From an uncultured Candidatus Saccharibacteria bacterium (lineage in GTDB: Bacteria; Patescibacteriota; Saccharimonadia; Saccharimonadales; Saccharimonadaceae), in contig CAURDR010000001.1 of assembly GCA_963523995.1 (NCBI GenBank), positions 238,021 to 302,020 on the forward strand: DNA of 64,000 nt, in the 5' to 3' direction. Positions 20,225 through 56,593 of this stretch are shown here, piece after piece. The translations under genes and the position numbers were made by a program. A model generated the notes under the pieces. It was not told where the DNA came from, did not search any database, and saw only the letters and a list, made by a program, of their open reading frames with translations. Every line of letters starts with the position of its first letter. Position 1 is the stretch's first letter.

Positions 20225-20280
20225 GGCATAAAAAATAGCCCCAAATGAGGACTCCTTAACGTTAAGTGTATTAATTATAG

Positions 20281-20335
20281 GGAATGTACGACAAGGCAGT
20301 CGTAGTGAAGAGCAGTCTGCTTCATCGCACATTCC
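20281..20335 (-). repeat. 3' trailer hairpin of cassette C
   Basis: ggaatgtacga/tcgcacattcc stem; contains gacaaggcagtc (20290-20301), complementary to leader 20908-20919. Confidence 0.8.
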
Positions 20336-20344
20336 ATGCGCGGA

Positions 20345-20785
20345 TCAATCCGCAAGCTCAGCAAGCTTTCTGGCGATAGCCAGGTTGCTCTTCTGATACA
20401 AGGGGATCTCCGTTGCGATGAGCTCTCTCAGGTCATGCAAAAAACCACTGTACTGGCTCCAGTAGCATCCTGGCCAATCGGATACGGGCGACTCCCCTTC
20501 CGCTATGGATGAGACTGCGCCTAGTATTTTGTCAATCTTTCCTTGTACTGCCTCCAATGACCCTTCCGGGCCATTATGGCAGATAGAGTCCAGTAGATCT
20601 CGAAGGGCTTCCGAATCCTCCTGGATGTGCGTCTTCTGGAGGTTAGGGTAATCACCCATGATATCGCTGATTCCATTATTATAGGCATTCAGCGTGGATA
20701 CCTTACCCTCCAGGATGCTTGCGTACACGGAGATTGCCTCCGTGTTTTTCGCGCACATGTGACTGAGAATCTCTTTCGTGAGCAT
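20345..20785 (-). CDS. Cassette C cargo protein (146 aa, unknown function)
   Basis: ORF lies between the conserved leader and trailer; purine-rich SD GGAAGGAAAGAG. Confidence 0.8.
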   Translation of the reverse strand: MLTKEILSHMCAKNTEAISVYASILEGKVSTLNAYNNGISDIMGDYPNLQKTHIQEDSEALRDLLDSICHNGPEGSLEAVQGKIDKILGAVSSIAEGESPVSDWPGCYWSQYSGFLHDLRELIATEIPLYQKSNLAIARKLAELAD

Positions 20786-20997
20786 TTTGCTCTTTCCTTC
20801 CTCTCATCCCCACTCGGCTGCGGTGAAGCACTTTTCTTCAGTGCAGGATGAGATCCTATCTCTTTTTGATATTTTTTAAAAAAAGAAATAGAAACTCATC
20901 CTGCAATGACTGCCTTGTCAAAGTGCGCTTTCGGACAATCAACTTGTCAACAAAAGCCACTTTCATTTATATCACTAATAGAATAAAATGTCAATAG
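20786..20997 (-). promoter_or_regulatory. Cassette C promoter and structured 5' leader (diverged copy)
   Basis: TTGACA(20994-89)-17 nt-TATAAA(20971-66); shares ttgtccgaaagcgNactttgaca, tatttcttttt and gatctcat blocks with 53067-53296 and 56360-56593. Confidence 0.85.
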
Positions 20998-48646: not shown

Positions 48647-49819
48647 ATGAGTGATAGTAGGCAGCCGCTGGCTGAACAGATGAGACCGCAGACGCTGGAC
48701 GAGGTGATAGGGCAGAGTCATTTGCTTGGTGAGGGCGAGTTATTGAGGCGAATCGTTAAGAATGGCGAGCCGGTCAGTTTGATATTGTGGGGTCCGCCGG
48801 GAACTGGAAAGACGACGTTGGCGCGGATTATTGCGCGCGAAGTGAAGGCGGAGTTTATTGAGCTGTCGGCAGTTACGAGCGGAAAAAAAGATGTTGAGCA
48901 AGTAATTGAGCATGCCCGTCAAAATTGGAATTTAGGACTCAGGACAATTCTATTCGTTGACGAAATTCATCGTTTCAATAAGGCGCAGCAAGACGCGTTT
49001 TTGCCGCATGTTGAGAGTGGGCTAATTACGTTAATCGGTGCGACGACCGAGAATCCGAGCTTTGAAGTCATTACGCCGCTGCTGTCGCGTTCGCGAGTTC
49101 TGGTTCTTCAGCGATTGACAAAAGATGAAATTGTGTCGGTGTTAAAAAGAGCACTGAAAGTTCTGAAAAAGTCCAAGCAAGTTTCGCCCAAAGCCCTGGA
49201 CTATTTGGCGGAATTATCGGATGGCGACGCAAGGGTGGCGCTGGGCAATTTGGAATTGGCGCTGAGTTTTAACGAAAAAGTAACGCCGGAAGTGGTTAAG
49301 GCGGCGGCTCAGAAGCGACTTCCGGGCTATGATAAAAAAGGTGATTCGCATTACGACGTAATTTCCGCTTTTATCAAGTCGCTAAGAGGCAGCGACGCGA
49401 CGGCTGCGACATATTATTTGGCGCGAATGATTGACGCGGGCGAGGATCCGAAGTTTATTGCTCGGCGAATGGTGATTTTTGCGTCGGAAGATATCGGGCT
49501 GGCGGGCAATGGTGCGCTGAGCTTGGCAATTGCGACGTTTGAAGCTGTCGAGCGCGTCGGTCTTCCGGAGGCGAAGTATAATTTATTCCATTGCGCTATT
49601 GCGTTGGCTCGTAGCCAGAAGTCGCGTGAAATTACCGATTTAATGTACAGCGCTTTTGAATTGGCGCACAAATATCCGAATTCTCCCGTGCCGTTGCATC
49701 TCAGGAACGCTCCGACCAAATTGATGAAAGATTTGGGCTATAACAAGGGTTACAAATGGCAAGCTGGCTTTAAGCATGACAAAGGATTTTTACCAGAGGA
49801 AATTAAGAATGTGGTATAA
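48647..49819 (+). CDS. rarA: Replication-associated recombination protein A
   Basis: [39 protein letters not shown]; start at ATG 48647. Confidence 0.95.
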
Positions 49820-53066: not shown

Positions 53067-53296
53067 TTCTATTGACTTTTTTACGCAAGTGTGGTATAAA
53101 TGAAAGTAGCTTTCGCTGATGAGTTGAGTAAATCCTTGTCCGAAAGTGAACTTTGACAGGCAATCGAACACAAGATGAGGTTTTATTTCTTTTTAACCCG
53201 CCATAAGAGAACTAAGATCTCATCTTGTGTTGTTAAGAGAACAATGCTTCGCTGCACACCCGCAGAGATGAGAACACCAGAAGAAAGGTGAAAACC
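53067..53296 (+). promoter_or_regulatory. Cassette A promoter and structured 5' leader
   Basis: TTGACT(53072-77)-17 nt-TATAAA(53095-100); stems 53103-15/53141-54 and 53167-79/53219-31; near-identical to the reverse complement of 56466-56593. Confidence 0.9.
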
Positions 53297-53779
53297 ATGC
53301 CTACCTATGCCGTAGAGGTGATTAGTCATCTCATCAATGACGCATATTCGAATTATCTCGAATTTAGTCGTCTCCTTCGTCAATGGGGAACTGCATCCCT
53401 GTCCCTAAAAGTTCCATCAGAGGAACAGCAGAGGTTTCGACAGATGAATCGCGATGCGATGGAGGCAATGAAGTCGATGAAGGACTACGCTGAGTCTCTG
53501 TGCCGCGAAAATTACGGCTCTTCGCTGACGCAAATCGGGGAAGAAGTTTACTCTCAGGCTCAAGTATGCATTGATGCTATTTCAGCTCGGTCTGAATGAT
53601 GCATTGAGGAACTGCCATACAGAGAGCATGCGTATAAAACTTCTGTGGACAGTCATACGAACGCACTCCTTGAGCTACTCCGAAGGGTCAAGCGTGCAGG
53701 TGACATCTTGAAGAAGTCTGATGAATTCGAGTCCGTTCGGGCTTACCAACTTTATCAGTACTACAGGTACATCTCGTAG
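53297..53779 (+). pseudogene. Cassette A cargo ORF interrupted by an in-frame TGA at 53597-99 (100 aa, or 160 aa if read through)
   Basis: The frame stays open for 59 more codons to TAG 53777-79, just before the trailer. Confidence 0.6.
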
Positions 53780-53789
53780 ACGCCCCGTC

Positions 53790-53882
53790 TCTACATGACA
53801 GGTGATTGTTCTTTTACGATTGCCTGTCATGTAGACTCTGAACTTATAACATTAAAAATCACCCTAACTACGGGTGATTTTC
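53790..53882 (+). repeat. Cassette A 3' trailer hairpin plus bidirectional terminator
   Basis: tctacatgacagg/cctgtcatgtaga; cgattgcctgtca (53817-29) complements leader 53154-66; aaaatcaccc/gggtgatttt. Confidence 0.85.
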
Positions 53883-53905
53883 TTATGGTGAAAAATTTCA
53901 GTTCT

Positions 53906-53990
53906 TGGTGCGGATGAAAGGACTTGAACCTTCACGCCGTGAGGCACATGCTCCTAAGGCATGCGTGTCTACCAATTCCACCACATCCGC
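53906..53990 (-). tRNA. tRNA-Leu(TAG)
   Basis: catgc-ctTAGga-gcatg; long variable arm; CCA. Confidence 0.95.
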
Positions 53991-55725: not shown

Positions 55726-55812
55726 GCGGATGTGGCGGAATTGGTAGACGCGCTAGCTTCAGGTGCTAGTGTACGCAAGTACGTGAAGGTTCAAGTCCTT
55801 TCATCCGCACCA
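55726..55812 (+). tRNA. tRNA-Leu(CAG)
   Basis: ctagc-ttCAGgt-gctag; long variable arm; CCA. Confidence 0.95.
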
Positions 55813-55837
55813 ATATTTGACAATTTTTCACCATAAG

Positions 55838-55927
55838 AAAATCACCCATTCTCAGGGTGATTTTTAATAACATAAGTTCAGAGTCTACATGACAGGCAAT
55901 CGTAAGAACAACCGCCTGCCATGTAGA
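55838..55927 (-). repeat. Cassette B 3' trailer hairpin plus bidirectional terminator
   Basis: Inverted homolog of 53790-53882; tgacaggcaatcg (55890-902) complements leader 56494-506. Confidence 0.85.
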
Positions 55928-55939
55928 AATTGGAAATTG

Positions 55940-56359
55940 CTAGAGTTCCATGACGAAACTCTGGGAGAGTCCCATGACGTGGAACAGAGACCTACGGATC
56001 ATGATCTGGAGATCGGTCACCAAATCCGCCTCCTCTTCATCCTCCATGGGGATATTCCCCAAGGTTTTCTCGACGGTTTTGAATTCAAGTGCGGCCGAAA
56101 TGGTCACGTCGAGGACCTTTTCTGCAAACGCTTCCTTGTTAATTTCCTCCTCGTCATACTCCTCACAAATGTGTGTGAGACCCACGAGATTTTCAATATG
56201 AGTCTCGGCTGAACGGACGGAAGCTTCGAAAAGGATCCCCTTGATGGGGTCTTGAAAATGGAATTCATCATCAAGGATGGCGCGCCTGAGACTATCCCAG
56301 TATAGCCTGGTTACCATAGCAAGCATGGTAAGGTTTTCCATGTAGGTGCTGAATTTCAT
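55940..56359 (-). CDS. Cassette B cargo protein (139 aa, acidic, unknown function)
   Basis: ATG 56359 after GGAAGGTG SD; lies between leader and trailer. Confidence 0.8.
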   Translation of the reverse strand: MKFSTYMENLTMLAMVTRLYWDSLRRAILDDEFHFQDPIKGILFEASVRSAETHIENLVGLTHICEEYDEEEINKEAFAEKVLDVTISAALEFKTVEKTLGNIPMEDEEEADLVTDLQIMIRRSLFHVMGLSQSFVMEL

Positions 56360-56593
56360 GGTGGTATTCACCTTCCTGGTGTTCTCTCATCTGCTCATCT
56401 GCGGGAGTGCAGTGTATTGTTCTTTCAATACAAGATGAGATCTTATCTCTCTTATGATGGTTCTAAAAAAGAAATAAAACCTCACCTTGTATTCGATTGC
56501 CTGTCAAAGTACGCTTTCGGACAAGGATTTACTCAACTCATCAACGAAAGCTACTCTCATTTATACCACACTTGCGTAAAAAAGTCAATAGAA
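56360..56593 (-). promoter_or_regulatory. Cassette B promoter and structured 5' leader
   Basis: TTGACT(56588-83)-17 nt-TATAAA(56565-60); homolog of the cassette A leader. Confidence 0.9.

Follow-up and report, generated by a model that had tools for sequence, protein, structure and literature searches.

Covarying pairing of mRNA ends in competition with a local hairpin in single-gene cassettes of Candidatus Nanosynbacter

The window analyzed here, a stretch of 64,000 nucleotides (nt) from an uncultured Candidatus Saccharibacteria bacterium (assembly GCA_963523995.1, contig CAURDR010000001.1, positions 238,021 to 302,020), contains three copies, A, B and C, of a single-gene accessory cassette that belongs to a family specific to Candidatus Nanosynbacter (TM7), an ultrasmall bacterium of the mouth. 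In these cassettes a short leader segment is complementary to a trailer segment on the other side of the open reading frame (ORF). Comparison across the genus demonstrated that this pairing covaries, that it belongs to the sense strand, that it competes with a local fold, and that sister cassettes carry it together with hammerhead ribozymes and the RAGATH-10 motif. We propose, with moderate confidence, that the sense mRNA of the cassettes forms a two-state structure, which in the window copies would act as a 5'-3' clamp or switch on the mRNA ends.

In the proposed structure, the 3' arm of the trailer hairpin has two alternative partners: it would pair either with its own 5' arm in a local hairpin rich in wobble pairs, or with the 13-nt leader segment in a Watson-Crick helix, H1. 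A second helix, H2, between the loop of a leader hairpin and the loop of the trailer, would flank H1, and together with the long leader hairpin P2 the two helices would form a three-way junction around the loop that holds the ORF. Since the base of the trailer hairpin lies close to the stop codon, a terminating ribosome could open it and tip the balance toward the leader.

In these cassettes a conserved promoter and a structured leader precede a fast-diverging ORF, which a trailer hairpin and then a terminator follow. In copy A the promoter is followed by the hairpin P0, the 13-nt leader segment, P2, a small hairpin with the H2 strand in its loop, a further small hairpin, a GATGAG motif, the ribosome-binding site, the ORF, the trailer hairpin and the terminator, and B and C are built on the same plan. 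The noncoding features are listed below in window positions; MFE stands for minimum free energy.

53072..53100, plus strand: promoter of cassette A, with TTGACT, a 17-nt spacer with TG before the -10, and TATAAA; read from the sequence and present in all copies
53109..53147, plus strand: leader hairpin P0 of copy A, at the putative RNA 5' end; outer stem GCTTTCG/CGAAAGT, inner stem GATGAG/CTTGTC
53154..53166, plus strand: H1 leader strand of copy A, TGACAGGCAATCG, the exact complement of 53817-53829, supported by covariation
53169..53229, plus strand: long leader hairpin P2 of copy A, present in MFE folds
53238..53245, plus strand: H2 leader strand of copy A, AGAACAAT, the complement of 53805-53812, within a small covarying hairpin (loop and 3' arm)
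53265..53273, plus strand: third GATGAG copy, just upstream of the ribosome-binding site
53790..53835, plus strand: trailer hairpin of copy A, predicted by folding as a ~20-bp local stem in which several pairs are G·U
53805..53812, plus strand: H2 trailer strand of copy A, ATTGTTCT, within the trailer hairpin (5' arm and loop)
53817..53829, plus strand: H1 trailer strand of copy A, CGATTGCCTGTCA
53854..53886, plus strand: intrinsic terminator of cassette A, with an A-run before and a T-run after it, its hairpin present in the MFE fold
56494..56506, minus strand: H1 leader strand of copy B, the same pair as in A
55884..55927, minus strand: trailer hairpin of copy B, containing the H2 strand 55911-55904 and the H1 strand 55902-55890
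20908..20919, minus strand: H1 leader strand of copy C, GACAAGGCAGTC, a different sequence version
20281..20335, minus strand: trailer hairpin of copy C, containing the H2 strand 20311-20306 and the H1 strand 20301-20290, GACTGCCTTGTC
20228..20253, minus strand: intrinsic terminator of cassette C, listed by the terminator scan

The promoter, the putative transcription start and the terminators of A and B are direct readings of the sequence; a rule-based promoter and terminator scan passed over the cassette promoters (in A the -10 ends in A) and the terminators of A and B. The terminator of A lies downstream of the trailer, which is thus inside the transcript. It faces a convergent tRNA-Leu(tag) gene at 53906-53990. 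A and B are each convergent with a tRNA-Leu gene, of anticodon tag for A and cag for B; in both regions (53854-53990 and 55726-55866) the cassette and the tRNA gene share a terminator hairpin that looks bidirectional, with an A-run on one side and a T-run on the other. P0 was found in the MFE fold, and throughout the genus alignment both of its stems persist, their substitutions being of the C-to-U and wobble kinds. The arms of P2 vary in concert among the cassettes, as judged by eye.

The exact leader-trailer complementarity that the initial annotation had described for A was verified in sequence and position, as were the same pair in B and the joint change of both partners in C. Relative to the pair of A and B, that of C (12 nt) has a single substitution and a single base insertion, and in both cases the partner strand has changed to match. 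Since the untranslated regions (UTRs) of A and B are nearly identical, only C provides compensatory evidence within the window, and the remainder comes from a wider set of cassettes. A conserved 23-nt leader anchor has three occurrences in the window, where none was expected. Sampling of 24 genomes of the genus turned it up in 20, at 1-7 copies per genome. The source genome (690 kb in 12 contigs, 92% complete) has a fourth copy, D, on contig C9, with a third version of the helix, GACAAGCAGCCT with AGGCTGCTTGTC. Among 16 genomes of other families only one matched the anchor, with two mismatches; this locus (L008 in G029), the sole match outside the genus, has neither the promoter nor the leader hairpin and was taken as chance. 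When species-representative genomes were scanned, many loci came up under the titles Candidatus Nanosynbacter, Candidatus Saccharibacteria or TM7 oral taxon, and scattered chance matches in other phyla were removed by a fuller anchor, except for L086, which slipped through and was counted as a miss. The 63 cassettes used below were selected from 109 non-identical anchor instances by two requirements, presence of the leader hairpin partner and no less than 1200 nt of downstream sequence.

An ungapped leader-trailer complement of at least 11 out of 14 positions, within 130 nt past the called stop codon, was present in 54 of the 63 cassettes. The other nine comprise copy A itself, which has 13/13 pairs and a premature stop that places the trailer 216 nt away; L074, L100 and L016, in which the helix was found by eye with a 1-nt bulge (in L016 from the trailer end); two cassettes with 10/14; two with a miscalled ORF; and the chance locus L086. 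The 63 cassettes show 27 distinct leader/trailer combinations, and 22 distinct versions of H1 were counted among 56 instances, with positions 6-13 showing G-C, A-U, C-G and U-A in turn. The 54 cassettes with the ungapped complement likewise comprise 22 versions, or 23 once copy A is added.

For the alignment, 53 of the 54 distinct elements were used (L018 was left out, its leader running off the contig). In this set 91.6% of 689 cells were paired, compared with 82.0% in shuffles, none of 500 reaching the observed value, and 25-50% with slid partners. Changes on both sides were found in 82 cells against an expectation of 30 ± 5, again reached by 0 of 500 shuffles, although the cassette sequences are related, so that the shuffle controls overstate independence and the shuffle figures are not to be read as probabilities. 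Both-sided changes fall at 6 of the 13 H1 pairs, a measure that 309 of 500 shuffles reached, and the count of pair types was reached by 183 of 500. A partner scoring at least 12 was offered by the own leader segment in 59% of 27 representatives, by foreign segments in 2.9% of 612 trials and by shuffled ones in 0.4%. Within H1, 25 G·U were counted against 9 A·C, which also points to the sense RNA.

A comparison of the two partners of the trailer strand bears on the level at which this pairing is maintained. In 52 distinct instances with 13 cells each, H1 has 618 Watson-Crick pairs, 18 G·U pairs and 40 mismatches, and the same trailer nucleotides have 477 Watson-Crick pairs, 117 G·U pairs and 82 unpaired positions in the local hairpin. 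Both partners of H1 sit between the conserved promoter and the terminator. One could suppose that the segments are recombination or transposition sites of a mobile cassette, attC-like or hairpin-dependent, whose covariation arose from homogenization of DNA repeats. The cassettes are indeed insertions, one genus member having no cassette at the corresponding tRNA site (described below); the leader segment resembles the 5' arm of the trailer as a direct repeat, and a single helix version flanks six cargo clusters unrelated by BLAST. However, the leader is a better-kept partner than the trailer's own 5' arm, which argues against a merely homogenized DNA repeat, and the 117 local G·U pairs would correspond to C·A mismatches if the opposite strand were the one that folds, which argues for selection on the sense RNA. 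Moreover, the partners are bracketed by the promoter, ribosome-binding site and terminator, and no recombinase was found among the flanking genes in the window (a whole-genome integrase search was not made). We therefore consider the DNA-level explanation very improbable. Exchange of cargo by means of the leader-trailer structure, one of the roles that the initial annotation had offered, is plausible.

The frame is also better conserved than what it encloses. Among the 21 cassettes with the helix of A, identity is 87% in the leader, 85% in the trailer and 54% in the coding sequence, suggesting that the RNA frame is under stronger constraint than the proteins. Nineteen of 21 terminator-type cassettes with the leader segment of A retain 13/13 Watson-Crick pairs.

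A second leader segment complementary to the trailer loop, also part of the earlier description, was found in A, B and C (in B, 56424-56417 with 55911-55904; in C, TGAAGA at 20840-20835 with TCTTCA at 20311-20306), and it covaries across the genus. In the terminator-type cassettes it lies at a leader position ~64-73 nt past the first segment and occurs in at least five sequence versions:

H2 version: AAGAACAA with TTGTTCTT
H2 version: ACAAAACG with CGTTTTGT
H2 version: GAAGAAC with GTTCTTC
H2 version: TGAAGAA with TTCTTCA
H2 version: AAAGAATA with TATTCTTT

A complement of at least 7 nt was present in 70% of 53 own pairs, compared with 21% of 2426 permuted pairs. Cassettes that lack a ribozyme show the best-developed H2. 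When H1 was enforced in folding, the helix extended into H2, giving a three-way junction, one loop of which contains the ORF.

The long-range fold and the local hairpin are mutually exclusive, as had been stated before, since the H1 strand of the trailer is the 3' arm of the local hairpin of ~20 bp. In A, this hairpin starts 10 nt past the stop codon; of the 13 nt that it has in common with H1, 10 form Watson-Crick pairs in it and 3 form G·U pairs. The base of the trailer hairpin lies at a median of 6.5 nt past the stop codon, and at no more than 13 nt in 37 of 48 cases. Folding of complete transcripts bore out the long-range pairing in part of the set: H1 was part of the MFE structure for 16 of the 26 full-length transcripts folded (probabilities 0.71-0.99), and ensemble energies preferred H1 in 28 of 35. 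The local fold was preferred by ~2 kcal/mol in A and ~8 kcal/mol in B; in C (L004) and D, H1 was in the MFE structure, with probabilities of 0.93 and 0.95. The two folds are close in predicted energy, and their balance looks like that of a two-state element.

The initial annotation had drawn an analogy to the silencing of hok/Sok and aapA/IsoA mRNAs, in which the 3' end locks the leader, the full-length mRNA is inert, and removal of the 3' end activates a harmful protein. The topology is the same, with 5' and 3' ends that pair and compete with local folds. In addition, the trailer loop TCTCTCC complements a GGAGAGA ribosome-binding stretch in the hammerhead-type and some other sisters, and some sister cargos are small membrane proteins (a phrog_2169 member and a glycine-rich ORF in L160). 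The predictions for translation did not agree with this analogy. In 35 full-length transcripts, the predicted unpaired fraction from the Shine-Dalgarno sequence (SD) to the AUG was 0.39 with H1 enforced and 0.40 with the leader segment blocked, and neither H1 nor H2 reaches the ribosome-binding site in the window copies. By these models, the two helices do not appear to mask that site there. The window cargos have 139-163 codons and are not small hydrophobic toxins, that of B being modeled as a soluble four-helix bundle, and no toxin family or PADLOC match was obtained for them. No minus-strand promoter-like site was found inside A or B by a consensus scan, which, having also missed the cassettes' own promoters, gives weak evidence. 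Silencing of translation by fold-back is therefore a distinctly improbable account of the window copies.

Evidence for what the switch may do came from the sister cassettes. In 18 of the 63, a type III hammerhead lies directly past the trailer, with a predicted cut 8-9 nt beyond the trailer strand. The core, recognized by eye, combines CUGAUGA and GAAA with three stems and a cleavage position following UC, and the Rfam model Hammerhead_3 gave 28.6-36.1 bits (E 5e-5 to 7e-3). Hammerhead matches were obtained in 68 of 101 sampled genus genomes (one over the cut-off) and in none of 14 control genomes. In the hammerhead-type cassettes, the local trailer hairpin takes in the 5' strand of stem III. 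The predicted probability of stem III was 0.00-0.19 in the 3' UTR alone, averaged 0.84 in 12 full transcripts, and was 0.03 when the 13 leader bases were barred from pairing. Hence leader pairing is predicted to license ribozyme folding in the sister cassettes: the local hairpin would hide the 5' strand of stem III and leader pairing would free it, so that on this thermodynamic prediction the leader would license self-cleavage and afterwards hold the new 3' end. In the window copies, which have a terminator in place of the ribozyme, the same switch would most likely clamp the 3' UTR to the leader and so control the fate of the mRNA ends, through stability or processing; such a clamp could be inherited from the ribozyme switch or be common to both.

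Besides the relatedness of the cassette sequences, several results weigh against this proposal. All but one of the hammerhead matches are below the 48.5-bit cut-off of Rfam, and the hammerheads are too similar for a covariation of their own. The licensing is an equilibrium prediction, and co-transcriptional folding would form the local hairpin first. In 10 of the 26 transcripts, the local hairpin wins outright. Finally, Rfam detected no ribozyme in the window copies A, B and C, so that function there is extrapolated.

The Rfam searches of the window and of copy A returned only tRNAs and chance microRNA-like matches to the long hairpin, and for the hammerhead model RF00008 there was no match in A at E up to 10. 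Downstream of terminator-type trailers, no known ribozyme was found at six loci. A fifth cassette of the source genome (L160:1000-1560; G000:C3, ~48925-49485) has the same promoter type and a different leader without the anchor, carries an 80-amino-acid (aa) glycine-rich membrane ORF, and ends in a hammerhead (35.1 bits) rather than a terminator.

The leader itself is related to a known motif. Six sister leaders (L018, L016, L101, L050, L044 and L027) matched RAGATH-10 (RF03147) with 55.9-80.2 bits, above the gathering threshold of 41.2, and the match spans the region from the 3' arm of P2 to the ribosome-binding site, the P2 arm matching the first helix strand of the model. The window had no match at the gathering threshold and the source genome none at E up to 1. 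By eye, the window leaders retain the last two hairpins of RAGATH-10 and the GATGAG strand, in a shortened version. Since the Rfam consensus pairs the GATGAG strand with the 3' arm of P2, the leader may itself have two states. The third GATGAG copy is also present at 56400-56385 and 20815-20805 in the window, and it co-varies with the 3' arm of P2 across the cassettes, as judged by eye.

With the ribozyme context in view, H1 might be thought a relic that was selected only as a hammerhead switch and persists functionless where a terminator has replaced the ribozyme. The only concrete predicted mechanism does concern the ribozyme-bearing cassettes, and the local fold is predicted to win in A and B. 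This does not agree with the retention of 13/13 pairs in the terminator-type cassettes noted above, which held despite coding sequences at 54% identity and local arms gaining G·U pairs, nor with the finding that H2 is strongest in precisely the ribozyme-free cassettes. The relic explanation is accordingly quite unlikely in our judgment.

A different role for the paired ends would be that of a processing stalk, with H1 stacked on P2 as a double-stranded substrate (for example of RNase III) for trimming of both ends, or with the ends positioned for formation of circular RNA. H1 abuts a near-perfect hairpin of ~27 bp. In addition, P0 of A has CTGATGAG and CGAAAG..AAC in common with the hammerhead and resembles the 3' half of the sister hammerhead, and the inferred transcription start is where a hammerhead cleavage product would begin, a layout expected of a ribozyme-bounded multimer unit. 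On the other hand, no cleavage site is present upstream of the leader, and a primary transcript bears a 5' triphosphate. The first hammerhead core motif is not intact in three of the four leaders of the source genome, no stem II was found in A by eye, and, as mentioned above, Rfam detected no hammerhead in the leader of A. P0 as a present-day hammerhead was rejected, the first motif being lost in B, C and D and pairing with CTTGTC as a plain stem, and no stem II being drawable. The RtcB ligase was not found in the 92%-complete genome. We consider the stalk unlikely. As to the earlier suggestion of a structure that brings the ends together, processing received indirect support from the hammerheads in 18 of 63 sisters; circularization of the present copies is unlikely, given the lack of a 5' cleavage site, the position of the promoter directly next to the leader, and the negative search for RtcB.

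A broader reading can be offered only tentatively, and we regard it as doubtful: that a natural hammerhead is licensed by a helix with the 5' leader of its own mRNA 450-1000 nt away, that the frame goes back to an RNA unit bounded by ribozymes, with H1 as its extended stem III, and that the cassettes are domesticated bacterial relatives of ribozyme-bearing RNA circles. A ribozyme-bounded ancestry of the frame is possible. If this reading were true, the 3' end of the cassette mRNA would mature only on an intact, perhaps already translated, transcript, and relatives of ribozyme circles would serve an obligate epibiont as an expression platform for fast-evolving accessory genes, including anti-defense genes.

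The cassettes stand singly among housekeeping genes (BipA, FAD-linked oxidase, SpoU methylase, histidyl-tRNA synthetase and tRNAs). An empty site was observed in one genus member (L161:1410-1590; G004:C9), where tRNA-Val(cac) and tRNA-Leu(tag) are 12 nt apart; its counterpart in the window carries the cassette A region of ~930 bp. The empty site indicates that the cassette is accessory. At the chromosomal position of A, another genome has a degenerate cassette (L023; G007:C16), with ~335 nt from leader to trailer and only a 43-codon frame between them.

The cargo ORFs of the window copies are as follows.

53297..53779, plus strand: cargo ORF of A, a 163-codon frame with an in-frame TGA at 53597-53599, open to the TAG at 53777-53779
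55940..56359, minus strand: cargo ORF of B, 139 aa, from translation
20345..20785, minus strand: cargo ORF of C, 146 aa, from translation

Past the TGA, the ORF of A is open for 59 more codons, and the orthologue in L056 has TGG at this codon, so to judge from the sequence cargo A may be either a recent nonsense mutant or read through. Searches of the cargos of A, B, C and D against Pfam, PHROGs and PADLOC gave no family or toxin match, apart from a weak, sub-threshold DUF2935 match for A. Cargo B has only seven homologues. Its model is a four-helix bundle (pLDDT 94.4, pTM 0.87), for which Foldseek against the PDB returned only generic four-helix bundles (best E 0.065) and the protein atlas no usable match. 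Orthologues of cargo C were found in L011, L040 and L090 (cluster 5).

In the wider set, cargos are of 70-250 aa and mostly soluble, and BLASTP at E < 1e-3 divided the 63 ORFs into 22 clusters, of which six are flanked by the helix version of A. Two hammerhead-type cassettes (L009:980-1420 and L057:1734-2072) encode proteins that match Pfam Tad4 with 45.0 and 27.7 bits (cut-off 25) and also phrog_9822. Tad4 is an inhibitor of type I Thoeris defense, and the Tad4-like anti-defense gene is found here in a bacterial epibiont and not in a phage. Other sister cargos matched phrog_2169 (annotated as a membrane protein, moron) and phrog_301 (annotated as a secreted protein). Elsewhere in the source genome, L167:1403-2989 (G000:C1:36902-38488) encodes a stand-alone reverse transcriptase, PADLOC Abi-P2 (DRT) with E 2e-176, an anti-phage defense gene in an epibiont genome of 0.7 Mb. 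It was considered as a mobility factor for the cassettes and rejected, the sole RVT_1 gene of the genome being this Abi-P2-type defense enzyme.

Among known systems, the mRNAs of hok/Sok and aapA/IsoA have 5' and 3' ends that pair across the ORF (tac-fbi in hok) and rival local structures. Like these, the cassettes combine pairing of the ends across the whole ORF with competing local folds, and an event at the 3' end is expected to change the fold. In contrast to hok/Sok, the cargos are larger, predicted ribosome-site accessibility is unchanged and no antisense RNA is evident from the promoter scan noted above; the 3' event in the sister cassettes would be self-cleavage by a ribozyme, whereas in hok it is exonucleolytic trimming. 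Of the hallmarks of a hok-type system, the cassettes thus show fold-back pairing, through H1 and H2, and neither a small toxin of ~50 aa or less nor, in silico, a closed ribosome-binding site.

RAGATH-10 is an orphan motif that takes its name from an association with twister and hammerhead ribozymes. Its Rfam model covers 82 nt and does not include the leader segment, the 5' arm of P2 or the trailer. The cassettes therefore provide a structural context for this motif and for the hammerheads of Saccharibacteria. Type III hammerheads occur in viroids, satellites, retrozymes and bacterial or phage loci, and alternative folds that gate cleavage are known from viroid hammerheads. In the sister cassettes the predicted gate is instead a helix whose other strand lies in the 5' leader, 450-1000 nt upstream, and the product is the 3' end of an mRNA rather than a unit-length replicon. 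On this model, self-cleavage hundreds of bases away should be lost when the 13 leader bases are mutated and regained with compensatory changes. Integron cassettes are promoterless and lie next to attI and an integron integrase, their attC site being an imperfect palindrome that is recognized as folded single-stranded DNA. Unlike these, each cassette has its own promoter and terminator and stands singly (IntI was not searched for).

Our literature search, which did not extend to the founding 2015 RAGATH motif paper and its supplements, found no description of this cassette arrangement. It found no text naming RAGATH-10 (the word 'RAGATH' is absent from the main text of the 2017 motif paper in Nucleic Acids Research) and no relevant work on hammerheads in Saccharibacteria, Nanosynbacter, TM7, Patescibacteria or the candidate phyla radiation (CPR).

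To our knowledge, only a few individual bacterial genes have been described with pairing between their 5' and 3' UTRs. The cassettes place a conserved and covarying 5'-3' frame on a whole family of unrelated, fast-evolving genes, in a host genome of ~0.7 Mb where each base is costly. Some of their cargos resemble accessory or anti-defense proteins of phages (Tad4), and the frame may therefore mark genes that epibionts use in conflicts with hosts or phages. Two single-gene precedents are compared here. In the icaR mRNA of Staphylococcus aureus, the 3' UTR base-pairs with the 5' UTR of the same mRNA (PMC3868564). On that account, icaR resembles the cassettes in pairing a bacterial 3' UTR with a 5' UTR within one mRNA, and the hammerhead-type sisters also have a complement to the SD; the trailers of A, B and C, however, pair 30-140 nt upstream of the SD and not with it, and the cassette pairing covaries and is common to a family of unrelated genes. 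In the hbs mRNA of Bacillus subtilis, an interaction of the 5' and 3' UTRs controls the access of a ribonuclease (PMC5737220). The hbs case concerns a single housekeeping gene, whereas the cassettes add a second helix and a competing local hairpin; it appears to be the closest functional analogue of the proposed clamp, since in both the pairing of the ends would govern stability and not a block of translation.

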